A stretch of DNA of 64,000 bases from Eledone cirrhosa. Its lineage: Eukaryota. Under the pieces are notes generated by a model. The model had not been told where the DNA came from and made no database searches. It saw only the letters and a list, made by a program, of their open reading frames with translations. The translations under genes and the position numbers were made by a program. Positions 15,151 through 61,790 of this stretch are shown piece after piece. Every line of letters begins with the position of its first letter. The first letter of the stretch is position 1. The stretch lies in the NCBI GenBank assembly GCA_964016885.1, contig OZ024741.1, forward strand, positions 365,552,001-365,616,000, in the 5' to 3' direction.

Positions 15151-15237
15151 AGGTGACGCGCGTTTCGCCACTGATCAGCTCAAGGTTCGATCTGTATCGA
15201 TCCTACCCGACTCAATAATCGGCAGCTAGACGGACCC
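15151..15237 (-). ncRNA. Hammerhead-like fold in the 3' pLTR (family E), long stem II, degenerate core
   Basis: GGGT-CCGTCTA-GCTGCCGAT...ATCAGTGGC-GAA-ACGCGCGT-C-ACCT. The core reads ATGACGA in the 13.0-kb copy, implying a CTGACGA consensus. Confidence 0.6.
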
Positions 15238-17279
15238 TCTTAAAATGCTATAAGAAAATAAAATACATGTTATGTGGTAAAGTCAGAGTTTCAAGAGTTT
15301 GACAAAATGAGTTGTTTTGATTGGTGGGAAGGATCAAGGGTATGTACTGGCCTGTAGTGTATATGATGGTGAGATGTTGGTGACGGTCGGTGGATGAGAT
15401 GGGCTGTGGTGTGGTGGTGGTGGGTTGGCCTTGACGTGTAGAGTTTGTGGGGGTGGATGTGATGATATGATGGTGGTTATGGTCGCTTATTGGGATGGGC
15501 TGTGGTATGAGGTTAGTGGATTGTCGGTAGACGGGTTGGCGTGTGTGGGGGTGTGGTAGTGGTGTTGTTGTTTATGGTAGTGGCGTTTGTGGTGGTGTGG
15601 TGGATGTGTTGGTGGTGTCAAGCCCTTACGGAGATACATAGCTAGACGCTCTTCGTCTGACAAATACGTTGTATATATTTATACACACACACATATGTAT
15701 ATATGCGCACATATATTGTTGTATAAACAGACACAAAACACATACGCACACCCTTGCCCACACATATCGACACACGCTCATACACAGCCAATATATACAC
15801 ACATGTATGTGTATGCGCGCATGCGGTCACATATAGAGAGTGGGGAGTATCCGTGGGGGTGGCGAAGGACAAAGATGGAGGGAAGGTGAGAGGCAATGGA
15901 GAAGGTGTTATACATATATACATACACATACATACACTCATACACACATACAGATATGGGCACATGCACGCACACGCACGTATACAAAATATACACATAC
16001 ACACTCACACACACGTATACACACACATATATATATACAAACACATACACAGACACACACACACACATACACATACATGCACATATACGCGCTCACATAC
16101 ACACAAATTCACCTATATACATATATGTAGACATACATATATATATATATATATATTTATGTGCACACACACATATATATATATATATAAATATGCTTAC
16201 ACGCGCGCATATTTATACGCCCGTATATGTAAAAAATACTTACACACAGACACACACACTTGCGTTGGTTCGGGAGGGGAGGTATGTGTTGGCGGTGTTG
16301 ATGAAGTATGGAGTTGTGTTGTGGTGGTGGTGGTGGTGGTGGTGGAGTTGTGAGCGACAAAAATATACAGGATCGAATAGTGCGATGGGTTACAGGTTAA
16401 AATGTGACATAGGGAACGCGGGGGAGAAGAGTTTATGGACGTATGGCGATGTGTGTTGTGGTCATGGTGGTGGTGGCGGTGGTGGGGTGATATGTTCGAC
16501 AAGATGATTACGTGAACAGAAGTTACGGTGTGTTACAGGTTAAGGCAGACGGGGGGGGGGATATAATACAGTCGATCTGGGGGTGAGGGATGATATGTCT
16601 TGATGTTAATGATGTTAATGATTGTTGAAATATGTGGATGTATCTAGTGGTGGCGGTGGTTGTGTGTGCGCGCGAAAGTACATTTACAGGGTCGAATTTT
16701 GCGTGGGGTTGTAGGTTAGGGTAGACAGAGGGAACATGGGGGATAAGGTTGAGTGTGTGTATGGTAGACATATGACGATGTGTGGTGTGGTGGTGGTGGC
16801 GATGGTGTGATATGATCGACACTGTATTTACAAGATCCCGTGTTACTATGGATTGTAAGGTAAAACCTATCATAGGAGACCGACCTAACACAATGTTGCA
16901 AGGATGAGGGGTGTATGGTGATGTGATTTTTGGTGGGGGTGGTGTATGCGGCATGATATACAAAATACGGACTTAGAAATGGTTACAGGCAGTACAATAA
17001 AATAAGTTCGCTGAGATGGGTGATGATGAGACGGGGTAGAGATGGTTATTATTATGCTGGGTCATGGTTAGTGTGATTTTTGGTGTGGGTGATGTATGCG
17101 GCATGATATACAAAATACGGGCTTGCAGATGGTTACATGCAATACAATGAAATAAGATAAAGTAAAATAAAATTAAAATTAAAATTAATAAATTCGTTGA
17201 GATGGGCGATGGTGATACGGGGCAGATGTGGTTATTATTATGGTGGGTCATGGTTAGTGCGTGGCCCTCCCCCGATGTT

Positions 17280-19771
17280 TGTGCGGAAAAGGTGTTTATC
17301 CTGGTGTGTCTGCAATTGACAATTATGTCCGACCTATAGTTTATAGGCGGCTTTTAATTTAATTATTTCCGCCGCCTCAGCCAGGCATAATCTGCAGTGG
17401 TTTCTGTCACTGGGGATATGTGCCACGCGTCTTTTCACTGACCACGAAATCTGGGGTTCAATATTCCTGCCCTTGAGGGCCCAGATCAAGTCGGCCAGTC
17501 TGGTTTGGGGTCGTTTCAGTCTATGTTTGAACGAGCTTCTGTGGTTATACCAGCGCTCCTTAAACGTAGTGGATATAGCACCTATATATGAGTACTCCTT
17601 ATTGCCGGCTGTGACATCACACCGGTAAACAATATTCTTAACGAGGCACTCCCTGTTTAGTGGGCATTCGGCCTGTTTTTTGCAGTCGCAGTTGGGTGTA
17701 ACCGGTGTGGTGGCACGTTGGCGGTTGGTTTCATGCGGTGTGGGTGTGGTGTGTGGGTTGTTGTGTTGTGTTGTGTGTGTGGTTTCGTTCTGGGCTGTGG
17801 TGGTGGTTTGTTGCGGGGAAATTCGTATTTTTGCCCTATTAGTGTGTGCTATTGTGTGGCCTAGGTTTGGTGCTGTGGAGAAAGAGAATTTTACGGTGTG
17901 TCTATTGAAGAGTTTGTGGTATTTGTGTGCGCGTGGAAAAGATTGTTCGAGAGCCCTGAAGAAGGTTCCCGGTATGTTAGTGGTGACGTGTATAGAATAG
18001 AGGGTGTTATACCATGTGACAGATCTACTTCGGTTTCTGCGGTGTTTAGTGAGGTTTCTGTGGTTGGGTGGTAGTTTGTGTGTGTTTTGGTCAGGCGTAT
18101 GTTTCATAGTGGTTCCAAGTAATCTATTGGCGTTATGTCCTTTGTCTCTATTGGTACGTAAACGTGTGCGATAGTCGGAGTCGTTATTGGGGTTGGAGAG
18201 TATGGCTTTATCTTCTAGACAGTTATGTGTGGCGCTGTCTGCACTGCCGGCTAGGGAGGGTCCTAGGTTATTGTTTGTCCTAGGTGTGGAGATTTCTTCT
18301 ATGTTCGTTTCTAAGTGTCCGGTTATGTTTAGCGGTGTTACGGTTCTATTTGGGTCGATGTAAGAAATCTTCTCAGTATTACTAGCGTTTATAAGTGCGG
18401 AGTTGTAGTATTCCGTGTGTTGCTTGAAGATGTTTTCATTAGCCGACAGGGTGGACAGTCTTTTGGAGACGCTTTTAACTATTGAGTTAATTATGCTCCT
18501 AGGGTGGTTGGACTGTCTGTTGACGTATTTAAGATTTTCCTTAGGTTTGTGGTATGGACGGTAGAGGTCTGAGTCTAATTCTAGGGTGACATCTAAAAAG
18601 TTTACTATCCTATTGTTAGGTTCAATTTATAATGCTAAACCTTGGGTCTCAAAGATGTACCTAAGTCGTTTGTGTAGTCTATTTAATTGGCTATTATTGA
18701 GTCCACGGGTCAATAGTAGGCCATCATCCCGGTATAAGCCACCGTCCAAGGAGGGGATCTCGTCTGTTAATATAGTTAGGAGGTATATGCCTACTATATC
18801 TGTAACCTGTGCGGAGTCAGTCGATTCCATGGTGATGTCGAAGCTATCTGGTCTATTCTGCCGTTCCCACAATCTTCCATTGAATTCTAGTAAAGTTTGC
18901 CTAGCTGTTATTATTATGTCCACTTCCTTTCTAGCGAGGCTTGATCTGTTTATGGCTGAGATCAGTGCCTTGTTAAGGATTGGGGATATAGATGCGTAGT
19001 AGTTCGTAATGTCCAATTGGACTAATCGAACATTCGACTTAGTTTCAATGGCACACAACCAGTCTATTACCTCCTTTGTACAAGACCATAGGCTGAGTTT
19101 AGTTCTATTTCTAAGTTCAGGTATAATTCGGTCAATGTTGATTTGCTAAGTCTACCTAGGTCCGATTTGGAAGGGGCTATGAGCCTGACCGGTAGTTTTG
19201 ACTGGAAGTCCGATTTATGGTCTTTAATGGATAGTCTCTGTGTCCTAGGGTTGTAAGGATAGGTCCTGTCGTCAATACTCAGTTCGGTCATTATTGTTTT
19301 CGCCTGTTTGTTTATGTGTGCTATGTTTTCTCGTGTTGATGTTTTGTATATTTTAGCGATTTCGTTTGTAATGCATTTGTTGTAGATTTTGTACTCCAAA
19401 TTGTATAGGTTTCCTGTTTTATCCGCTGGTATGATAATGCCAGTGCTATTCTATGATAATGTCAGTGCACTTCTGTCAGGGTTTCGCGGTGGTTTCCTGA
19501 ATCTAATTGTCCGGACCATGGTAATGATCCTGCTCTCAAACCCCTCTAGGAGTGGGTTGTGCGGTGGGTTTTTCGTTGATTTAAAAAGTCTTTTTATGTG
19601 GTTGGTGGGATTGTCAATTGATCCAGGGGCCCTCCTTTTGTTGTAGTGGTAGGCCCTCCAACGGATCCTCCTGATGAAATTATTAGTCTGCTTTAGTAAT
19701 AGGTCCATGTAGACATCTTCCGAAGGTATAGGAATGTCCTTTAGGGAGGAAGTGTTGTAGAACAATTCCAT
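17280..19771 (-). pseudogene. Naiad-type PLE polyprotein (RT + GIY-YIG endonuclease), disrupted by several frameshifts and stops
   Basis: SLKDIPIP...FIRRIRWRAY; VRLIAPSKSDLGRLSK; VQLDITNYYASI; FDITMESTDSAQVTDIVG; GLYRDDGL; NFLDVTL..YRPYHKP; CDC..CPL..CL..NIVY...YIG....FKERWYNH; CRLC; INYRSD...CRH. Confidence 0.93.
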
Positions 19772-21206
19772 GGTGTTCCAGGTGAGCGCTCGACAAAGAA
19801 AGGAGCTAAATATCCAGGGGGTGTAACTAGGAGTTACTGCAGGTTCACCCGGGAGAGCACTCGATGTTTAGGTTCACTTCTGTGATGAGGTGTAGAGCTA
19901 TACAGAGTGTAATATATTGAAAGGATAACAAGTACGATTGATTACTCCTTCATTGCATAAACCACTGCAGATTATGCCTGGCTGAGGCGGCGGAAATAAT
20001 TAAATTAAAAGCCGCCTATAAACTATAGGTCGGACATAATTGTCAATTGCAGACAAACCAGGATGAACATCTTTTCCGCACAAACATTCGGGGGAGGGCC
20101 ACGCACAAACCATGACCCACCATAATAATAACCACATCTGCCCCGTATCACCATCGCGCATCTCAACGAATTTATTAATTTTAATTTTAATTTTATTTTA
20201 TTTTATCTTATTTTATTGTATTGCATGTAACCATCTGCAAGCCCGTATTTTGTATATCATGCCGCATACATCACCCACACCAAAAATCACACAAACCATG
20301 ACCCAGCATAATAATAACCACCTATACCCCGTCTCACCATCGCCCATCTCAGCGAACTTATTTTATTGTACTGCATGTAACCATTTTTAAGCCCGTATTT
20401 TGTATATCATGCCGCATACACCACCCCCACCAAAAATCACAACACCATACACCCCTCATCTTTGCAACATTGTGTTAGGTCGGTCTCCTATGATAGGTTT
20501 TACCTTACAATCCATAGTAACACGGGATCTTGTAAATACAATGTCGATCATATCACACCATCGCCACCACCACCACACCACACATCGTCATATGTCTACC
20601 ATACACACCTACAACCGTATCCCCCCCCCTGTTCCCTCTGTCTACCCTGACCTACAACCCCACGCTAAATTCGACCCTGTAAATGTACTTTCGCGCGCAC
20701 ACACAACCACCGCCACCACTAGATACATCCACATATTTCAACAATCATTAACATCATTAACATCAAGACATATCATCCCTCACCCCCAGATCGACTGTAT
20801 TATACCCCCCCCCCCCCCGTCTGCCTTAACCTGTAACACACCGTAACTTCTGTTCACGTAATCATCTTGTCGAACATATCACCCCACCACCGCCACCACC
20901 ACCATGACCACAACACACATCGCCATACGTCCATAAACTCTTCTCCCCCGCGTTCCCTATGTCACATTTTAACCTGTAACCCATCGCACTATTCGATCCT
21001 GTATATTTTTGTCGCTCACAACTCCAGCACCACCACCACCACCACCACAACACAACTCCATACTTCATCAACACCGCCAACACATACCTCCACTTCCGAA
21101 CCAACGCAAGTGTGTGTGTCTGTGTGTAAGTATTTTTTACATATACGGGCGTATAAATATGCGTGCGTGTACGCATATTTATATATATATATATGTGTCT
21201 GTGCAC

Positions 21207-21255
<49 letters not shown>

Positions 21256-22372
21256 TGTGTCTACATATATGTATATAGGTGAATCTGTGTGTATGTGAAC
21301 GGGTATATGTGCATGTAAATGTGTGTGTGTGTGTGTGTCTGTATATATATGTGTGTGTATACGTGTGTGTGTATACGTGTGTGTGAGTGTGTATGTGTAT
21401 ATTTTGTATACGTGCGTGTGCTTGCATGTGCCCATATCTGTATGTGTGTATGAGTGTATGTATGTGTATGTATATATGTATAACACCTTCTCCATTGCCT
21501 CTCACCTTCCCTCCATCTTTGTCCTTCGCCACCCCCACGGATACTCCCCCACTCTCTATATGTGTCCGCATGCGCGCATACACATACTTGTGTGTATATA
21601 TTGGCTGTGTATGAGCGTGTGTCGATATGTGTGGGCAAGGGTGTGCGTATGTGTTTTGTGTCTGTTTATACAACAATATATGTGTGCATATATACATATG
21701 TGTGTGTGTATAAATATATACAACGTATTTGGCAGACGAAGAGCGTCTAGCTATGTATCTCCGTAAGGGCTTGACACCACCAACACATCCACCACACCAC
21801 CACAAACGCCACTACCATAAACAACAACACCACTACCACACCCCCACACACGCCAACCCGTCTACCGACAATCCCCTAACCTCATACCACAGCCCTTCCC
21901 AAAAAGCGACCATAACCACCATCATATCATCACATCCACCCCCACATACTCTACATGCCAAGGCCAACCCACCACCACCACACCACAGCCCATCTCATCC
22001 ACCGACCGTCACCAACATTTCACCATCACATCCATCCCCATATAGACTACAGTCCAGTACATCCCCTTGATCCTTCCCACCAATCAAAACAACTCATTTT
22101 GTCAAACTCTTGAAACTCTGACTTTACCACATAACATGTATTTCATTTTCTCATAACATTTTAAGAGGGTCCGTCTAGCTGCCGATTATTATATATATAT
22201 ATGCCTTATCCCCCTTCTCCACGGGATACAGAGAGATGGAGGCGATGACAATGGGAGTTCGACTCTGCCGCGTGCCAGATTATTATCGAACTTTAACTAC
22301 AATGAAGATTAAAATTATATCATATTTGTAATGTGAGTAGGATGTCATGCTGTTTAATGATTTTATATATAA

Positions 22373-24093: not shown

Positions 24094-24360
<267 letters not shown>

Positions 24361-25450: not shown

Positions 25451-25517
25451 AATAAATGCTTTAAACATAGCTTTGATTCTTATAAATTCTATACACACGC
25501 ATATATATATGTATATA

Positions 25518-26337
25518 TTATAAATGTAAGCTATCGCCGTATTTTGACTAAAGAAATTAAAGAAAATGATTTAGCCTGATAGTGGGGTTAAGAACCCTCG
25601 GAGAAATGGAAAAAGATGAGTATTGGCGTAAATGGGAGTCGAACCCACATCTTTGGTTTTCCAGACCACTGTGCTACCATTACACCAACAGATCACCTGC
25701 CTTCTTCCATTCAAATTAGAAGCTATAATCTTAGCAACTGTAAATGTCAAGTAAGAATATTTTCGAAACAGCGAGCGAGTTTGAAATTATAAATGTAAGC
25801 TATCGCCGTATTTTGACTAAAGAAATTAAAGAAAATTATTTAGCCTGATAGTGGGATTAAGAACCCTCGGAAAATGGAAAAAGATGAGTATTGACGTACA
25901 TGGGAGTCGAACACACATCTTTGTTTATCCAGACCACTGTGCTACCACTACACCAACACATCAACCGTCTTCTTCCATTCAAATTACAAGCTATAATCTT
26001 AGCAACTGTAAATGTCAAGTACGTCAATAAATAAACTCGCTCATTGTTTCGAAAATATTCTTACTTGACATTTACAGTTGCTAAGATTATAGCTTCAAAT
26101 TTGAATGGAAGAAGATGGGTGATGTGTTGGTGGAATGGTAGCACAATGGTCTGGATAAGCAAAAATGTGGGTTCGACTCCCATGTACGCCAATACTCATC
26201 TTTTTGCATTTCTCCGAGAGTTCTTAACCCCACTATCAGTCTAAATAATTTTCTTTAATTACCTTAGTCAAAATCCTGCGATAGCCTACATTTATAATTT
26301 CAAACTCGCTCGCTGTTTCAAAAATATTCTTACTTGA
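25518..26337. repeat. 269-bp unit: ~1.9 tandem copies plus ~1.15 inverted copy, each carrying a tRNA-like gene
   Basis: Unit start ttataaatgtaagctatcgccg at 25518 and 25787. The inverted copy spans 26033-26337. Both outer ends are at (TA)n. Confidence 0.9.
25624..25697 (-). tRNA. tRNA-like sequence/pseudo-tRNA, anticodon GGA (other copies 25892-25966 -, 26118-26191 +)
   Basis: A-box/D-arm GGTGTAATGGTAGCAC, anticodon arm TGGT-CTGGAAA-ACCA, T-arm GTGGG-TTCGACT-CCCAT, acceptor only GGTG/CGCC, TTTTT ~9 nt downstream. Confidence 0.55.
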
Positions 26338-26398
<61 letters not shown>

Positions 26399-26553
26399 TT
26401 ATGGAGAGAGACACATATAGATAGAAAAGTAGATTACACCAATGAACACTTGAAAAGAGAGACGAATCAGCAATATACATATATCGTTATAAAAATCGAT
26501 ATATATCGATAGATTCGTAGAATAATATATCTTCAGCATGCATCAATGTTTGT

Positions 26554-26594
<41 letters not shown>

Positions 26595-26862
26595 TGTGTG
26601 TGTGTGTGCACGTCGTATGTATATGTGCATGTGTTTTATGTATGTCGGTTTGGCTAAATATATAAGTGTCTATTTAAAGAACTACTTATAAATAACACTT
26701 AAGCACGCACACACACGCACATACACGCATACACAGACACACATACACATATATGTTTATATTGATATATATATATATATATCCCACCCACTCCATTCTC
26801 AAAAGCGTGAACCTAATAAACTACCATCTGTACTGCCTCTGTTTTTGTTCCTGTCTAATATT

Positions 26863-26887
<25 letters not shown>

Positions 26888-26893
<6 letters not shown>

Positions 26894-27278
26894 TAATAAA
26901 AGGAATTCCAACTTTGTCTGATTTACTAGTTTTATTTACAATCCTTTAAAATTTATAATGGTATTATAATGAAATAGTATGATAGAATATTAAATGTTAA
27001 GTGTTAATTGAACAAGTACTTTCATGTTTTCGCAATCTTCAGGTTCATATTGTGTGGTGACAGTCAAGTTTGCAATTTTCAACTGTGAAAATTGCAAACT
27101 TGACTGTCACCACACACTATTAACCTGAAGATTGCGAAAGCATGAAAGTACTTGTTCAATTAACACTTAACATTTAATATTCTACCATACTATTTCATTA
27201 TAATACCATTATAAATTTTAAAGGATTGTAAATAAAACGAGTAAATCAGACAAAGCTGGAATTCCTTTTATTAATATA
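26888..27278. repeat. Near-perfect 390-bp palindrome with one HHR per arm (family H: 27009-27047 -, 27121-27158 +)
   Basis: Arms 26888-27081 and 27086-27278, 4-nt loop, about 6 mismatches by eye. HHR TGAAC-CTGAAGA-T-TGC-GAAA-GCA-T-GAA-AGTACT-T-GTTCA (composite of the two arms). Confidence 0.88.
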
Positions 27279-27339
27279 ATCTTCTATACACAAGCATACA
27301 CACCCGTGTATATTTATCTATCTATCTATCTATATATAA

Positions 27340-27371
<32 letters not shown>

Positions 27372-27406
27372 AAATATATTTATACATATATATTAATGTA
27401 TATATA

Positions 27407-27479
<73 letters not shown>

Positions 27480-27623
27480 GTATATATGTACATATATATA
27501 CATTAATATATATGTATAAATATATTTATATATATGTGCATATATATATATATAAAGGAACGAATGTCTTTCGTCAAATCGGACGGAGGAAACAATGTTT
27601 CCACTGGTCTTTCCAATTACTAA

Positions 27624-27685
<62 letters not shown>

Positions 27686-27734
27686 CTATTTATACATATA
27701 TACTAATGTATATATATAGACATATATATTGATG

Positions 27735-27787
<53 letters not shown>

Positions 27788-27992
27788 ACATATATACATA
27801 CATACATAAATATATATATATGTATATGTATATGTATATGTATATATATCTATATCCAAAATTAAGATAAATCAAAATGAATTTAATCTAAGTGAAAATT
27901 ATGGGTGTCATGCCAGAAAGACATGCGCCATATCACCTGCAAAATAAGGTCCAAGATTCTAATGAATAGGTCCGAGCATTTTATAACAACTA

Positions 27993-28571
27993 GAAATTGA
28001 TTAACATATAAATAAACATGAATAATCACAGGATATAATTTGTACAAGTGTGTAAGCACACATAGCTAGGTAGGTAACTAAATAAAGTTAACTAGAACTT
28101 CAAAAATAGATACCTTATAATATGATTAATCTTCCCTGTATATATTCCATTAAAGAAATATATTTCACCAATTAAGCGAATGGTAAACGGCGGATGCCGG
28201 TACTTGGATTTTCAACAAGGAAGAAGTCCAGCGATCTATGTTTAGCTGGTATGATATGTGTATTTCTAGTAGATACAGCACGTGTTACTGGCCAGTCGCT
28301 GATTTGAACTTGAAGTGTAAACATAGATCGCTGGACTTCTTCCTTGTTGAAAATCCAAGTACCGGCATCCGCCGTTTACCATTCGATTAATTGGTGAAAT
28401 ATATTTCTTTAATGGAATATATACAGGGAAGATTAATCATATTATAAGGTATCTATTTTCGAAGTTCTGGTTAACTTTATTTAGTTACCTACCTAGCTAT
28501 GTGTGCTTACACACTTGTAAAAATTATATCCTGTGATTAATCATATGTTTATTTATATGTTAATCAATTTC
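27993..28571. repeat. ~250-bp inverted repeat (73-nt spacer) with a full three-helix U3-A8 hammerhead in each arm (family I: 28130-28224 -, 28338-28432 +)
   Basis: TCTTCCTTG-TTGAAAA-T-CCAA...TTGG-T-GAA-ATATATTTC-TTTAAT-GGAATATAT-A-CAGGGAAGA: 9-bp stem I and 9-bp stem III. Confidence 0.82.
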
Positions 28572-28642
28572 AAGTTGTTATGTATATGTATATGTATATG
28601 CATATATATGTATATGTATATATATGTATATGTATATATGTG

Positions 28643-31939: not shown

Positions 31940-35620
<3,681 letters not shown>

Positions 35621-37197: not shown

Positions 37198-38327
<1,130 letters not shown>

Positions 38328-38340
38328 GTGTGTATATATT

Positions 38341-39516
<1,176 letters not shown>

Positions 39517-41714: not shown

Positions 41715-43170
41715 AGTAATAATAATAAATTTGGGGACTAAAATCTAAAGAGGGATCTATAAGGATAAATATATATCAAACATATAAGAACCCTAAAGCA
41801 AATATTTATTAAAATAACAGATTAAAGTTTAAGCAAAGAATCACTTCTTTCACCCTTAACGGGATCTTCTGAAACTAAAAAACTTAATCTGTGAACGCAG
41901 ATGTAAATATTTCGAAAAACGTTGCAACCAAAGTAAAACAGGAAGACGATACTTTGGTTCGTGGAGACAATCCCTGGCAATGAACGGACAAAAGCGAAGA
42001 TAATACGTCATTATTTGGATCGTTGAGAACAATTACATGCAATGACAAAACCGTTTATGTTATAAATGAAGTCGTAGACTAATATTCTATATAAGTGGTT
42101 CGTGGAGACGTTCCCTGGCAATGAACGGAATAAAGGCGAAGACAATACGTCATTACGTGGATCGATGAGAACAATTACACGCAAAGACAAAACCACGTCT
42201 ATGGTATAAATGAAGTCGTAGACTAAAATTCTATTTAGGAAATCGAATGATTCCGGCTTCAGAGTTAAGAATAATGTAAATAAATTACAGAGGTTATTGA
42301 AATCAACAATAATTAAATATATACATGCACGCATCCATATACGTACATACACATGCATACGCGAAAACTCCTGCCATGGGTTTGCATATACAAGTACGTA
42401 CACCAAAACACGCGCAACACCTGTACCCGCACACATACGAACGTATACACCAAATACACATAAAAATATTTAAAATATATATATAATTGTGTGTGTGTGC
42501 GTGTATACATATAATTATATAAACGTATATAAATATACACACATAAAGAGGTAAATGCACATATTTTCGCTAAAACGTCAACCGAAACACAAAGTACACA
42601 CATACACACCCTACAACCATGCAAATCCGCATACACACACAAACGCAAATACACGTATACGCATAACCATATACACGTGTACCAGTATATATAATTTAAA
42701 ATATACACCTATAACAAATACAAGCAAATATACGTACGAGAAAGTATACGTACCTTCAGAAAACATATATATAGTATATAGTTACCCATACAAATAAGTA
42801 ATGGTATACATATAAAATATATTTAGCTACCACATCAAGACATTATCCGCGTATTGTTCGTACTATCCGTTAGGGTATAATGTGGTGCTGTAATACAGGA
42901 AAGTTTTGTGCAATTTATGTTTACAAGCCGAAATTGCCTCAGATTTTTGGTTTAAGATGTGGTCATTGGCGTAGAGTATTTCCAGGGCTTCAGCGGCGCA
43001 GAGGTCACATGGTTTTTTATTTCCTTTATATGATCTAGCTTTAGCTAGGATCTCCCAATGTAACCTATATTTGGTGTGATTGTCTTTTAGACTCCAGATA
43101 TAAGCTAAAAGTGACGTATTCGCTCTTAAAGGATTAAGAAAAGAATGGGTATACATGTAAAGACGCTGCT
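41715..43170 (-). mobile_element. 3' fragment of a third Naiad-type PLE (GIY-YIG C-terminus 42863-43156, 3'UTR with ~115-bp subrepeats, HHR family B at 41826-41876)
   Basis: TSLLAYIWSLK...WEILAKARSY...CDLCAAEALEIL...LNQKSEAISACKHK. Homologous to 52695-53935 and 58780-59885. Confidence 0.9.
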
Positions 43171-43552
43171 TAAATCTATTTAATAAATAAATAAATAAAT
43201 AAATAAATAAATATATATATATATATATATATATCTGGCCGTCGGAACCGACAGAGGGTTACCGAATGTGAACAAAAGGGGAAACATGTACTGTGAGAAT
43301 GTTTTGGCTGTTGTTTCTAGCATGCCCCATAAATGCATCATCATATACTAATTTATGATTACTATGTTCAATATATTAACTTTGTAAATTATGCTGTCAA
43401 ATAAATGATTAGTTATTCAAAACTGCCTCAAGATTTACATTTAATAACAAAATGGTGACGGCAAACGAGGTTAAAAAAATATGATTAATAATTTTAATGA
43501 TTACTTTGCTTCATAAATGTTTCCCAGGAGACTCACCTAAATGCATATACAA

Positions 43553-44345: not shown

Positions 44346-44363
44346 GAGTATATATGTATATAT

Positions 44364-46866
44364 ATTGTTATGCTATGGGAGAATCATTTTGCCAATAAGA
44401 AACACACGCACCAGTGCTTTCACTCTAATTTATTATAAATTAAATTTATAAATTTAAGAATTTATAAATTTCCGGTTGGTTGGTTCCATAAGCGGTCGGT
44501 TGTTCATATATTGTCAAAGTTCTTTCGTCACACATTCTGTGACCTCTTCAGTGACAGGGGATTATTTTCTTTGTCTTTGTGTCTTTCTTTTGTTCTGTCC
44601 TACGCCTTCTTGTTTTTGTGTGTGTTGTGTGCTTAGTTCGCGCATGTGTTACATCCGGGTGTCTGTGTGTGTTTATATTTGTTTATTTATTTGTTTATTT
44701 ACATGTTTATTGGTTGGTTGTTTGTTCTATGTATGTGTGTGTTTTCATTTTGTCCTTAATTGTGATGTTGCGATTCCATTCATGTTTTTTTTTAAATTTT
44801 GGTTGGAGTTCATTTATGTTTATTGCCTCTGTGATTTGTCTAAACATTGCGTCTTTTCTGTGTGTAGATTCTATTTTTATTTCTATGTTCTCTAATATGC
44901 CCTTATGTTCTATTTTAGCATGTTGGTGGAGTATTGATGATTCTTTTTTATCTTGAAGTTCCCGCCAGTGTTCATTTAACCGTTCTCCTATGCTACGAGC
45001 TGTCTCACCTATGTACACTATATTCTTATCTTTACATTATCCTTCAGTACATCTTATGCTATATACTACATTTCTAGTTTTACAGTTAATATGGGGGCTT
45101 AGTTTACAGATTATACATTTCTTATCTACACAGGGAGGTCTTTGAAAAGGGTATGTATTGCTAGTAAGTGTTTTTATGGAGGTACCTGGTCTTTCTACCC
45201 TCTTCATATTAAGTTTATATTTATCTAGGGCTCTTCTAAGCTAATTCACCTCTAGGGGCTGTATTGATGAACATTACACTCTGGTATTTATTGCTATCAT
45301 ACCATGAGTTTATTCTATTAGCCTTATTCCTAGTTCTTTCTATTCTATTCCAAAATTTGCTCCTATACAAGAGGCAGGTCCCATTTTTGTCATTATTTAC
45401 CATTTAATCACATTTAGTTCTGGCTCCTCTATATACTCTGATTGTAACAAGAGAACTGCATACGGTGGATGAAGTGTTGTAAGTGTCTCTCTAGTTCTTT
45501 AGGGTTGCACATGCGGGACACGTTTCTCATCACCCGTACCAAATCCGCAATCAGTATGTTGATTTTGGTGTGATCCGAAACAGCTGAGTTTCGGTGGATC
45601 AGATATTTGTAAGTTATGGGTTTGGCATAATTGGAATGGAGGATTTGTTTTTTGTTATTAATGGTTTCTAACCTGAGCTCTGTGTCTAGTATAGGTAATC
45701 GATGGTTGGGGTGTTTGCTTGGGTAGTCTATAGTAACTCTAATACTCTGTTGGATGGAGTTAGCTATTTGCTGGATGCTTTCCATGGTGTTTTTCTCTAA
45801 TTCCTGACCGTTCTAGTGGGGCTTTTTTACTACGATGTTTATATCATCAACGTAGCGGGAGTACATTATCAGGGTTAAGATGTTGCTGTCTTCTAATTGT
45901 TCTTTAAGTTTAAGTTTAAGTTTATTGTCCCACCATACCATGAATATGTTAGCTATGTCACCTGCAATGCTAACACCAATGGCTGCTCCCTCCTCTTGGG
46001 CATATGTTTTTCCATTAAATTTGAACATATGTTCCTTAAGGGTTAATTTTATACTGCCCATTTTATACTAGATAAACACAAACTTAATATTAAGATAGTA
46101 GAAAGACCAGGCACCTCCATAAAAACACTTATTAACAATACATACCCTTTTCAAAGACCTACCTGTAAAACTAGAAATGTAGTATATAGCATAAGATGAA
46201 CTGAAGGACAATGTAAAGATAAGAATATAGTGTACATAGGTGAGACAGCTCGTAGTATAGGAGAACGGTTAAATGAACACTGGCAAGAACATCAAGATAA
46301 AAAAGTATCATCAATACTCCACCAACATGCTAAAATAGAACATAAGGGAAAATTAGAGAACATAGAAATAAAAATAGAATCTACACACAGAAAAGACGCA
46401 ATGTTTAGACAAATCACAGAGGCAATAAACATAAATGAACTCCAACCAAAATTAAATAGAAAACATGAATGGATAGTAAGATCACAACTTACAATTAAGG
46501 ACAAAATGAAAACACACGCACACATAGAACAAACAACCATCCAGTAACATGTAAATAAACAAATAAATAAACAAATATAAACACACATGTAACACATGCG
46601 CAAACTAAGCACACAACACACACAAAAACAAGATGGCGTAGGAAAGAACGAAGGAGAGGCAAAAAAACATGGAAAGGAATCCCCAGTCACTGAAGAGGTC
46701 ACAGAATTTGTGACAAAAGAACTTTGACAATATATGTCCGGTTATGGAACAAACCATCTAACCGGAAATTTATAAATTCTTAAATTTATAAATTTAATTT
46801 ATAATAAATTGGAGTGAAAGCAACTGGTGCGTGTGTTTCTTATTGACCCTCCCAAAGCATAACAAT
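44364..46866 (-). mobile_element. PLE family A: 5'-truncated RT/GIY-YIG copy (44364-46060) with an inverted copy of its 3' ~0.8 kb (46068-46866)
   Basis: FKFNGKTYAQEEGAAIG..., YSRYVDD, LPILDTEL, VYIGETARSIGERLNEH, RQITEA.NI; mirrored ORF 46230-46547 (+). HHRs at 44512-44556 (-) and 46685-46729 (+). Confidence 0.92.
44512..44556 (-). ncRNA. Type-I hammerhead ribozyme, canonical core (family A)
   Basis: TGTCA-CTGAAGA-G-GTCACA-GAATG-TGTGAC-GAA-AGAACT-T-TGACA. Confidence 0.85.
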
Positions 46867-46924
46867 ATCGGTTTCAACACACGTTTTCAGATATAGAATC
46901 TTGCTAAACAAATTCAGAAACGAA

Positions 46925-52246: not shown

Positions 52247-52261
52247 GCATATATATATATA

Positions 52262-52683
52262 TTGTTATAATTTGGGAGGGTCATGTTGCCAATAAGAAAC
52301 ACACGCACCACATGCTTTCACTTCAATTTATTATAATAAATTTATAAATTTAGGAATTTATAAATTTCCGGTTGGTTGGTTGGTTCCACAACCAGATGAT
52401 TGTTTATATATTGTCAAAGTTCTTTCGTCACACATTCTGTGACCTCTTCAGTGACTGGGGATTCTTTTCTTTGTTTTTGTGCCTCTCCTTTGTTCTGTCC
52501 TACGCCATCTTGTGTTTGTGTGTGATATGTGCTTAGTTTGCGCATGTGTTATATCCGGGTGTCTGTGTGTGTTTATATTTGTTTATTTATTTGTTTATTT
52601 ACATGTTACTGGTTGGTTGTTTGTTCTATGTGCGTGTGTGTTTTCATTTTGTCCTTAGTTGTAAGCTGTGATGTTGCTGTTGC
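52262..52683 (-). mobile_element. 3' end/pLTR of PLE family A with HHR (52412-52455)
   Basis: Near-identical to 59908-60330; begins at (TA)n. Confidence 0.9.
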
Positions 52684-52694
52684 ATATATATATA

Positions 52695-53929
52695 TATCTG
52701 GAGTCTAAAAGACAACCACACCCAATATAAGTTACACTGGGAGATCCTAGCTAGGGCAAGATCGTATAACGGAAATAAAAGACCATGTGACCTCTGCGCC
52801 GCTGAGGCCCTGGAAATAATCTACGCCACAGACCACATCTTAAACAAAAAATCTGAGGCAATTTCGGCTTGTAAACATAAATTGCACAAAACTTTCCTGT
52901 ATTACAGCCCACGTTATACCCTAACGGATAGCACGATCTATACGTGGATATTTTACGTCTTGATGTGGGAGCTAAGTATATGTTTTGAATATTCCTTTAC
53001 TTATTTGCATAGGTATGTATATATTACCCGTATGTTTTGTGAAGGTATGTATACCTTCTCGTACGTATATTTGACTGTTCTGGCGTATGTAATTTTTACA
53101 TATTCTGGTATTTAGGGTTTGGCTATGTGTATACAAGAGTTTTGCGTCCGCGTGAGTATACAGGTTCGTACGTATGGTGGGTGTGTGTATATGTGTACTT
53201 CTTGTTTTAGTTGACTTACGTCTCCGAACATTCGTGTATTTATATGTAGGTATGCGTGTGCGCTTGTTATATACGTATTTATTTACTTATATACGTTTAT
53301 ATAATTATTTATTTATTTGTAAACAAGCACCACACACACACATATTTATATGTGCGTGGTTTTGTATACCTATGGTAAGGTTTGGCGTATGCTTGTGTAT
53401 GTACGTATCTGTTTGCGTGTATGTATTTATTTGTTTCTATTACTTCTGTATTGTATTTATTTACTTTGTTCTTAACTCTGTAGCGGAGATTCATTTGGTC
53501 TCCTAGTTAGAATTTTAGTCTACGATTTCTGCTATACCATTTACGTGGTTTTGTCTTTGCGTGCTATTGTTCTCCACGCTCCACATATGACTTATTATCT
53601 TCGTTTTTTCGTTCATTGCCAGAGAACGTCCCTATGCACCACCTAAGAGAACATTAGTCTACGACCCCTTTTATACCATAAACGTGGTTTTGTCTTTGCG
53701 CGTAATTGTTTTTCACCGCTCCTATTAATGACGTATTATTCGTTTTTTCCCGTTCTTTGCCAGCGAACGTTACCACGAACCAAAGTATCGTCTTCCTGTC
53801 TTCCTCCGGTTGCAACGTTTTTTGAAATATCCAGTTCTCTGCGTTTACAGATTGACTTTGTTAGTTTCAGAAGATCCCGTTAAGGGTGAAAGCAGCGATT
53901 CTTTGCTTAAACTTTAATCTGTTATTTTA

Positions 53930-53935
<6 letters not shown>
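52695..53935 (+). mobile_element. 3' fragment of the third Naiad family with HHR family B (53863-53913)
   Basis: IWSLKDN...CDLCAAEALEI...CKHK. AGTTT-CAGAAGA-T-CCC-GTTAA-GGG-T-GAA-AGCA...TGCT-T-AAACT. Ends in (TA)n. Confidence 0.9.
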
Positions 53936-54005
<70 letters not shown>

Positions 54006-58540: not shown

Positions 58541-58779
58541 TCTCTACTGCGTTACGGACAAATTCACAAGATTACTGTAGCTTTTGCTAACGCCATGTAA
58601 TTTTATGTCATTTTACTTTCATTTCTTTTGTTTACTTTATCGTTCATGTCTGAGTTCTGTACTGTGTTTAATCTCGTTCTTCGTCCCATAATATAGACCA
58701 AGAGAATATTAACCTATCTTAGACATTGTGATGCCGAATGGACTAGCACTGCGATTGGTGGAGGTTGTAACTGTGTACG

Positions 58780-59878
58780 ACAACATCTTTAACAAAAAAT
58801 CTGAGGCATTTTCGGCTTGTAAACATAAATTGCACAACACTTTCCTGTATTACAGCCCCACGTTATACCCTAACGGATAGTACGATCTATACGTGGATAT
58901 TTTACGTCTTGATGTGGGAGCTAAGTATATGTTTTCTTTATACCATTACTTATTTGCATAGGGAAGTATATATTACCTATATGTTTTGTGAAGGTACGTA
59001 TACCTTCTCGTACGTATATTTGATTGTTTATGTTATGGCGTATAATTTTATATATTCTGGTACATATGGTTTGGCCATGTGTATACGGGAGTTTTGCGTC
59101 TGTGTTAGTATGCAGGTTCGTACGTATGTAGGGTGTGTGTATATGTGTACTTCATGTTTTGGTTGACTTACGTCTCCGAACATTCGTGTATTTACATGTA
59201 GGTATGTGTGTGCGCTTGTTATATACGTATTTATTTATTTAGATACGTTTATATAATTATTTATTTATTTGTATACACGCATACACACACACATATTTAT
59301 ATGTGCGTGGTTTTGTATACCTATGGTAAGTGTTTTGCGTATGCTTGTGTATGTACGTATTTGTTTGCGTGTATGTATTTATTTATTTCTATTACTTCTG
59401 TATTGTATTTATTTACTTTGTTCTTAACTCTGTAGCGGAGATTCATTCGGTCTCCGAGTTAGAATTTTAGTCTACGACTTCTGCTATACCATTTACGTGG
59501 TTTTGTCTTTGCGTGCTATTGTTCTCCACGCTCCACATAAGACGTATTATCTTCGTTTTTTTCGTTCATTGCCAGAGAACGTCTCTATGCACCACCTAAG
59601 AGAACATTAGTCTACGACCTCTTTTATACCATAAACGTGGTTCTGTCTTTGCGCGTAATTGTTTTTCACCGCTCCTATTAATGACGTATTATATTCGATT
59701 TTTCCCGTTTTTTGCCAGCGAACGTTACCACGAACCAAAGTATCGTCTTCCTCTCTTCCTCCGGTTGCAACGTTTTTTTGAAATATCCACTTCTGCGTTT
59801 ACAGATTGACTTTGTTAGTTTCAGAAGATCCCGTTAAGGGTGAAAGCAGCGATTCTTTGCTTAAACTTTAATCTGTTA

Positions 59879-59885
<7 letters not shown>
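58780..59885 (+). mobile_element. 3' fragment of the third Naiad family with HHR family B (59817-59867)
   Basis: Near-identical to 52835-53930; ends in (TA)n. Confidence 0.9.
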
Positions 59886-59907
<22 letters not shown>

Positions 59908-59909
<2 letters not shown>

Positions 59910-61790
59910 TGTTATACTTTGGGAGGGTCATGTTGCCAATAAGAAACACACGCACCAGTTGCTTTCACTTCAATTTATAATAATAAATTTATAAATTTAG
60001 GAATTTATAAATTTATGGTTGGTTGGTTGGTTCCACAACCGGATAGTTGTTTATATATAGTCATAGTTCTTTCGTCACACACTCTGTGACCTCTTCAGTG
60101 ACTGGGGACTCCTTTCTTTGTTTCAGTGCCTCTCCTTTGTTCTGTCCTACGCCATTTTGTTTCTGTGTGTGTGTTGTGTGCTCAGTCTGCGCATGCGCCA
60201 CATCCGGGTGTCTGTGTGTGTTTATGTTCATTTATTTATTTGTTTATTTACATGTTACTGGTTGGTTGTTTGTTCTATGTGTGTGTGTGTTTTCATTTTG
60301 TCCTTAATTGTAAGTTGTGATGTTGCTGTTCCACTCATATTTTCTATTTAATTTTGGTTGTAATTCTTTTATGTTTATTGCCTCTGTAATTTGTCTAAAC
60401 ATTGCGTCTTTTCTGTGTGTAGATTCTATTTTTTTATTTCTATGTTCTCTAATTTACCCTTGTGTTCTATTTTAGCATGTTGGTAGAGTACAGATAATTC
60501 TTTACTATCTTGAAGGTCTCGCCAGTGTTCATTTATCCGTTCCCCTACACTACGAGCTGTCTCACCTATGTACACTATATTTTTGTCTCTACATTGTCCT
60601 TCAGTACATCTTATGCTATACACTACATTTCTAGTTTTACAGTTAATATGGGGGCTTATTTTACAGGTTATACATTTCTTATCTATACATGAGGGTCTTT
60701 GGAAAGGGTATGTCTTGCTAATAAGTGTTTTTACGGAGGTACCTGGTCTTTCTACTATCTTAATATTGAGTTTATGTTTATTTAGGGCCCTTCTAAATTT
60801 GTAAACTAATTCACCTCTAGGGGTTGTATCGATGAACATTACACTCTGGTATTTATTGCTATCATACCATGAGTTTATTCTATTAGCCTTATTCCTAGTT
60901 CTTTCTATTCTATTCCAAAATTTGCTCCTATACAAGGGGCAGGTCCCGTTTATGTCATTATTTACCATTTTTTCCCATTTAGTTTTGGCTCCTCTATACA
61001 CTCTGATTTTATCTCTCTGATTGTAGCCAGAGAACTGCATACGGTGGATGAAGTGTTGTATGTGTCTCTCTAGTTCTTCGGGGTTGCACATGCGGGACAC
61101 GTTTCTCATCATCCGTACCAAATCCGCAATCAGTATGTTGATTTTGGTGTGATCCGAAACAGCTGAGTTTCGGTGGATCAGATATTTGTAAGTCATGGGT
61201 TTGGCATAATGGGAATGGAGGATTTGTTTTTTGTTATTAATGGTTTCTAACCTGAGCTCTGTGTCTAGTATAGGTAATCGATGGTTGGGGTGTTTGCTTG
61301 GGTAGTCTATAGTAACTCTAATACTCTGGTGGATGGAGTTAGCTATTTGCTGGATGCTTTCCATGGTGTTTTTCTCTAATTCCTGACCGTTCTAGTAGGG
61401 CTTTTTTACTACGATGTTTATATCATCAACGTAGCGGGAGTACATTATCAGGGTTAAGGGGTCTTCTAATTGTTCTTTAAGTTTAAGTTTAAGTCTACTG
61501 TCCCACCATACCATGAATAAGTTAGCTATGTCGCCTGCAATGCTAACACCAATGGCTGCTCCTTCCTCTTGGGCATATGTTTTTCCATTAAATTTGAACA
61601 TATGTTCCTTAAGGGTTAGTTTTATGCTGGCCCCTACCGCATGTGCAATCATTTTCTTCAGTTCATCGTGGTTTTCGGGTGTCCGTATGGCTCTGGTCCA
61701 CCCGTTCCATCTATCTGTGTGGGTTTTCTTGGCCATTGAGGTAATGGTAGGTGGTCTGCCTCTAGCACCGGATGACACGATTAAGAGACG
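59908..61790 (-). mobile_element. PLE family A, 5'-truncated RT + GIY-YIG copy with HHR (60059-60103)
   Basis: ORFs 61392-61778 (GARGRPPTIT, GAAIGVSIAGDIANLFM, YSRYVDD) and 60426-61364 (HYAKPM, CIDKKCITC, CKTRNVVY..C..YIGETAR) are in frame across one TAG. HHR AGTCA-CTGAAGA-G-GTCACA..TGTGAC-GAA-AGAACT-A-TGACT. Confidence 0.93.

Follow-up and report, generated by a model that had tools for sequence, protein, structure and literature searches.

Two copies of a Penelope-like element (PLE) in the stretch of Eledone cirrhosa DNA analysed here (64,000 nucleotides, called the window below) contain the same in-frame TAG in the reverse transcriptase (RT) region. Such a stop could be recoded when the protein is made, or it could be damage in copies that no longer function. 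If recoding were true, the element would be a retrotransposon under host RNA-editing control, linking cephalopod editing to transposon activity. Sequence comparisons pointed to the second answer. With a probability of about 0.93, the TAG is a decay lesion in dead PLE copies, produced by a 1-base and a 2-base deletion that shifted a single codon. The shared stop would thus most likely represent ordinary decay, and recoding is unsupported.

Four pieces of this PLE family were present in the window (copies A to D, Table 1), and only A and B span the TAG. Copy A sits between (TA)n tracts. When the closest named homologue, protein CAI9736119.1 (P0092) of O. vulgaris, was compared with copy A by tblastn, positions 61775-60546 were covered (65%). 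Copies A and B lack at least the first 390 residues of the homologue, and downstream of its +2 frameshift copy A has lost the RQITEA segment that full-length homologues retain. Owing to the 5' truncation and to separate frameshifts, deletions and further stops, neither copy can be functional, and neither gives a functional protein with or without recoding.

Table 1. Positions in the window of the PLE copies, the stop codon and associated features.
Feature	Position	Strand	Basis or remark
Copy A, 5'-truncated PLE	59900..61775	-	C-terminal RT part, Zn-finger-like linker, GIY-YIG endonuclease, 3' pLTR
Copy B, 5'-truncated	44357..46059	-	Deletions of 14, 8 and 7 bases and two more stops
Copy C, inverted endonuclease and pLTR arm	46068..46868	+	Joined to the 5' end of B; without the stop region
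Copy D, 3' pLTR remnant of the same PLE family	52253..52684	-	Without the stop region
In-frame TAG of copy A, KKPY*NGQELEKNTMESIQ	61392..61394	-	Translation, homologue alignment; 10 codons after YVDD, variable loop
In-frame TAG of copy B, KKPH*NGQELEKNTMESIQ	45813..45815	-	Translation
Site where window copies are without 2 + 1 family bases	61390..61407	-	Local frame shift gives TAG
A/B near-identical stretch, likely conversion tract	61109..61458	-	5/350 mismatches; B counterpart at about 45530-45879
Arg codon in copy A where homologues have Trp	61251..61253	-	Also in B (45672-45674)
+2 frameshift and stop private to A	60426..60434	-	Endonuclease ends before conserved RQITEA
Hammerhead-like core (CUGAAGA, 6-bp stem, GAAA), pLTR of A	60070..60098	-	Pattern, fold, eye
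Hammerhead-like core, copy B	44523-44551	-	Pattern
Hammerhead-like core, copy D	52423-52451	-	Pattern
Other PLE-like families	17334-19867 (-), 34600-35000 (-), 41802-43258, 52693-53955, 58779-59909

The first-pass annotation had reported an in-frame TAG in two diverged copies, and the codon was found in both, ten codons past YVDD in a variable loop (ORF translations). The EDSNILTL/EDPLTL indel between A and B was also real and amounted to 6 nt. The reading frame was open immediately past the TAG; the 27 nt after which it was said to resume only mark how far away the next Met lies. The divergence did not hold at the stop itself, where A and B differed at only 5 of 350 bases (61458-61109). The two copies are therefore not independent witnesses at this position, and their common stop is due to shared descent and not to chance.

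The wider family was examined by aligning four of the 24 listed public DNA runs to 61000-61700; the organisms, which are coded, may not be the species of the window. Organism A is represented by the contigs of X1 and the raw DNA reads of X24, organism B by X4 and organism C by X5. The highest word share was that of X1 (0.74), and none of the listed pieces covers the entire stretch. The summed depth of X1 was 16,288 in the bin containing the stop (61384-61407), compared with 180,722 and 152,408 in the adjoining bins, a drop that would be expected if most family contigs have another sequence at this place. Two additional nucleotides were present behind 61390 in five contigs of X1, 14 of 29 reads of X24, the single contig of X4 (1/1) and X5 (depth 22.4 of 82.7). 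In other sequences they were placed behind 61392 (X24, 8/48; X5, depth 60.3 of 82.7) or behind 61389 (X24, 3/29). One additional nucleotide was found behind 61402 in seven contigs of X1, in 10 of 54 reads of X24, in X4 and in X5 (depth 22.4), and behind 61407 in X24 (12/375, one start) and X5 (depth 60.3). Record 12 of X4 and record 20 of X5 each bridged the site with three gaps; the bridging contig of X4 had a depth of 3.63, at which errors occur. Thirty contigs of X1 had a loose end at 61393 with a consensus (agreement 0.75) that was 3 nt longer and was read by hand as VKTPPQENS, resembling the O. vulgaris protein.

The letters next to the stop also set the window apart from the family. At 61388 the window letter was replaced in 20,262 of 20,410 (depth, X1) and in 27 of 29 reads (X24); the corresponding values at 61401 were 922 of 1,022 (X1) and 47 of 52 reads (X24), so that up to five of 52 and two of 29 reads of X24 at 61401 and 61388, respectively, may represent the window form. 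Two family forms translate as IVVKTPPLENSQELEK and IVVKKPPLKNSQELEK, compared with IVVKKPY*NGQELEK in the window; these translations rest on pairing the +2 with the +1 nucleotides by matching depths and by the three-gap records. In the runs of the three coded organisms, perhaps other species, the family sequences that span the site were thus 3 nt longer than the window copies and open, reading K-T/K-P-P-L/Q-E/K-N-S-Q, and the TAG was not fixed in the family. Searches for further copies gave none in prokaryote-genome contigs, no locus in viral contigs and one 55% fragment (L001) in metagenome contigs. Pieces of the family (60400-61700) occurred in runs with 17 coded organism labels from 16 studies, mostly with small shares, which could reflect many related host species.

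These family forms point to the most likely origin of the stop. One of them, with Leu-Glu, already contains the letters T-A-G out of frame. Deletion of one base in a C run would have brought them into frame, and deletion of two bases in an AG repeat, about 10 bases away from the first, would have restored the frame, leaving one codon shifted. That the family form is ancestral and the window form derived is suggested by the O. vulgaris homologue and by the prevalence of the family form. Because the family sequences differ in length at the site, a single-base change of CAG or GAG to the stop was rejected as the origin. Both deletions lie in slippage-prone runs, and context-dependent assembly errors in the C run and the AG repeat, repeated in both copies, could give the same picture. 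Such errors are nevertheless a very unlikely source, since they would not give the adjacent substitutions or the three or more distant substitutions shared by A and B. A collapsed copy does not account for the similarity either, since A and B still differ at five places in the tract.

Comparison with homologous proteins placed the TAG in a hypervariable acidic loop between YxDD and IANxIH, whose length ranges from 20 to 45 residues. The loop was spanned, by pattern, in 99 of 110 homologues, and 98 of these had no Trp anywhere in it, while one had. The Trp that was to be looked for at the TAG position was therefore missing from the relatives. In a further set of 142 mostly more distant proteins, 42 spanned the loop and four contained Trp, all in loops with long inserts. 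The O. vulgaris protein CAI9736119.1, 67% identical over 403 aligned residues, shares the YVDD..IANSIH region with the window copies, but it has no stop at the site (VVKAPPQES), retains the conserved Trp discussed below and has a loop three residues longer. Protein P0137 reads VAKEHPQDS at the same place. CAI9736119.1 represents a related family and not that of the window element itself. No relative above 69% identity was obtained in word-index searches, and the 150 best cluster representatives included none that exceeded 60%; hence no protein of the exact PLE family of the window was found.

The first-pass annotation had raised the possibility that ADAR edits UAG to UIG, which is read as Trp, so that the host would control the amount of full-length RT-endonuclease. 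The HDV amber/W site is a UAG triplet in a coding frame. The window codon is likewise of this kind, as is the target of the coleoid stop-loss editing from UAG to UGG for which transcriptome work allows (PMC8382921). In favour of editing, O. vulgaris is the source of the closest named homologue, and the frame is open on both sides of the TAG. The remaining evidence made this explanation highly improbable. In the runs of three coded organisms the family has 3 more nt at the site and no stop there, whereas amber/W editing presupposes a stop fixed in a functional family. Trp was lacking in the loop of 98 of 99 unedited homologues and restricted to long-insert loops (4/42) in the distant set. No inverted partner longer than 11 nt was present for the site within the window, although a pairing partner had been proposed as a check, and the inverted arm C stops short of the site. 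The 300 nt around the stop folded no better than shuffled sequences (z +1.33; 182 of 200 shuffles folded as well), so that no double-stranded RNA around the A that would be edited is predicted within the window. The window site thus differs from both the HDV amber/W site and coleoid stop-loss sites in having no predicted duplex or partner, relatives without Trp and a stop that is not fixed.

Part of the other damage common to A and B was also beyond repair by A-to-I editing, as are the frameshifts. Among 40 of the 170 substitutions, those that were listed, four at which at least 99% of the X1 depth was unlike A were common to A and B, and all of them change the residue. At one position A and B have Arg in place of a Trp that is kept by 83 of 84 homologues and almost every family read; at another they have Tyr where 82 of 86 homologues have Ser or Asn. 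As A-to-I editing turns A to G, the shared change from Trp to Arg cannot be undone by it. Considering these residue-changing substitutions, the segment was probably dead already when it came to be shared by A and B. The demand for a full-length protein made by editing or readthrough is hence unsupported: the family is open with 3 additional nt, the homologues have no Trp, and the copies carry lesions that cannot be edited. If a sub-lineage of this PLE family in the host had nevertheless fixed the TAG and stayed mobile by ADAR editing or readthrough that restored the RT-endonuclease, the host would have an editing switch on a retroelement. In view of the shared Trp-to-Arg change and a family that is open elsewhere, the chance of this is very slim.

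Recoding has a known precedent in PLEs, namely the selenoproteins of Naiad elements, which likewise have in-frame stops and for which UGA is proposed to encode selenocysteine (PMC8557442). In the Naiads described there, UGA is in the family consensus, nearly always at a conserved Cys, SECIS elements are predicted and the endonuclease is N-terminal. The window element has UAG at an unconserved loop position instead, the stop is absent from most family members, and the endonuclease is C-terminal. A general Rfam scan of 43000-64000 listed no SECIS element. Neither coleoid stop-loss editing nor the UGA recoding of Naiads fits the TAG of the window.

Programmed ribosomal readthrough of UAG, tuning the amount of full-length protein, could be tolerated in this loop, which accepts many residues, so that an inserted residue might be harmless. 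Against this, the stop interrupts the RT core directly past the catalytic YVDD and is, as far as can be judged, not between separable products. The TAG was absent from most related copies, no downstream structure was predicted, and A and B are broken elsewhere. Readthrough is therefore the least probable of the explanations considered, and one narrow literature query found no report of it in PLEs.

Although the preferred reading, decay by two small deletions, accounts for the stop, it leaves two ways in which A and B may have come to share it. Over the aligned ORF the copies differed at 68 of 1175 bases, distributed as 5 of 350 in 61458-61109 and 63 of 825 elsewhere. This local identity was reached by 1 of 2000 scan permutations, the tract having been chosen after the fact. 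All five mismatches in the tract are non-synonymous, a pattern compatible with neutrality (P 0.2-0.26). After insertion, 350 bases or more may have been copied between A and B, or into them from a third dead copy. The tract looks younger than the insertions: the two inverted arms of B (B and C), which would have been identical if they arose in one event, now differ at 51 of 783 positions, the single insertion of B and C being the assumption behind this comparison. Gene conversion, either between the two copies, which lie 15.6 kb from each other, or with a third copy as donor, is thereby suggested, and conversion or recombination after insertion is regarded as the probable route, though with clear reservation.

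The alternative concerns only this last step. A and B could both have been reverse-transcribed in trans from one dead source, all differences between them dating from after insertion. That they are separate insertions is indicated by different 5' ends and by flanks that are not colinear; the latter also excluded a segmental duplication giving A and B. In addition, all four displayed near-fixed substitutions that distinguish A and B from the family are non-synonymous, and purifying selection on the differences between A and B became borderline once transition bias was allowed. Copying in trans, however, predicts even divergence, whereas the values were 1.4% in the tract, 7.6% over the remaining ORF and 11.5% (44/384) in the pLTR. 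In the part present in A, B and C (778 columns), 51 positions were private to A, 30 to B and 20 to C, and B and C mostly sided against A. Trans copying is thus a tentative option, distinctly less probable than conversion. The first-pass annotation had named a dead master mobilised in trans as one branch; the evidence supports inheritance of the stop from a dead source, and gene conversion is no less likely a route than trans mobilisation.

It had also proposed that both flanks of the stop be compared by dN/dS, and values below 1 were indeed obtained. The ratio between A and B was 0.47 overall (p 0.006 without transition bias), 0.35 upstream of the stop (p 0.11), 0.88 from the stop to the first frameshift of B and 0.39 in the endonuclease part (Fisher p 0.007). 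With transition bias the last p rose to 0.06-0.13, so that a separate functional ancestry of the 3' parts of A and B is not established and the ratios are not usable as support. Compensating micro-deletions in a shared tract can give rise to a common stop in seemingly diverged copies, and pairs of copies need a comparison of local identity and of the wider family before recoding is invoked.

By the published descriptions of EN+ PLEs (PMC8557442, PMC4209133), the element is assigned from its sequence to the Penelope-like elements with a C-terminal endonuclease, of the Neptune/Nematis type. The RT domain was recognised by a Pfam RVT_1 match that fell short of the curated cut-off (E 1.4e-4), by the YVDD motif and by 73 homologues, and the best-named homologue is labelled RT domain protein. 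A GIY-YIG endonuclease (PF01541) follows C-terminal to the RT and scored 24.1 bits in copy C and 22.0 bits in copy A (cut-off 22.6). Between the two lies a CX2-5CxxC linker motif as defined for the Neptune/Nematis clades in PMC8557442 (CIDKKCITC in A, CVDKKCIIC in B). Copy B on the minus strand is joined at 46059/46068 to the inverted copy C on the plus strand, which gives a pLTR with an inverted 5'-truncated arrangement; tandem and inverted 5'-truncated PLEs are depicted in the legend of Fig. 2 of PMC8557442. The order RT, linker, GIY-YIG, the inverted 5'-truncated arm and the insertion in (TA)n all resemble the Neptune/Nematis elements as described in that source, and the hammerhead-like core of the pLTR may be a further similarity; unlike those elements, the window copies are all truncated and broken. 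The junction at 46059-46068 contained a short filler repeating TTTTATACT, typical of an inverted 5' arm of PLEs. O. vulgaris is reported to contain Penelope-like families (PMC13282606), and non-autonomous PLE derivatives are described in bioRxiv 10.64898/2026.07.22.740005.

The CUGAAGA-stem-GAAA cores in A, B and D had a 6-bp stem II and a closing stem of 4-5 bp, and their folds were no stabler than shuffles. An Rfam scan to E 1 gave no hammerhead family match, and the scan of 43000-64000 gave only microsatellite-driven matches of the miRNA type below gathering scores. In copy C a similar core at about 46690-46718 on the plus strand has GAAA altered to AAAA. A loose hammerhead pattern matched 12 times in the window compared with 1.76 expected, and 24282-24305 on the minus strand also appeared hammerhead-like by eye.

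Several broken copies of other PLE-like families, with an RT of the YRDDG type and GIY-YIG-like C-termini, were located in (TA)n in the window. An inverted duplication of about 2.2 kb with 95% identity (15214-17406 and 19956-22190) flanks the PLE-like ORFs at 17334-19867. At 3-2028 on the minus strand there is a broken ORF2 comprising an endonuclease and the start of an RT, which we take from the motifs in its translation to be L1/Tx1-like. Several blocks of 300-870 bases in the regions 25517-28581 and 37337-39366 are palindromes or inverted repeats and possibly MITE-like.
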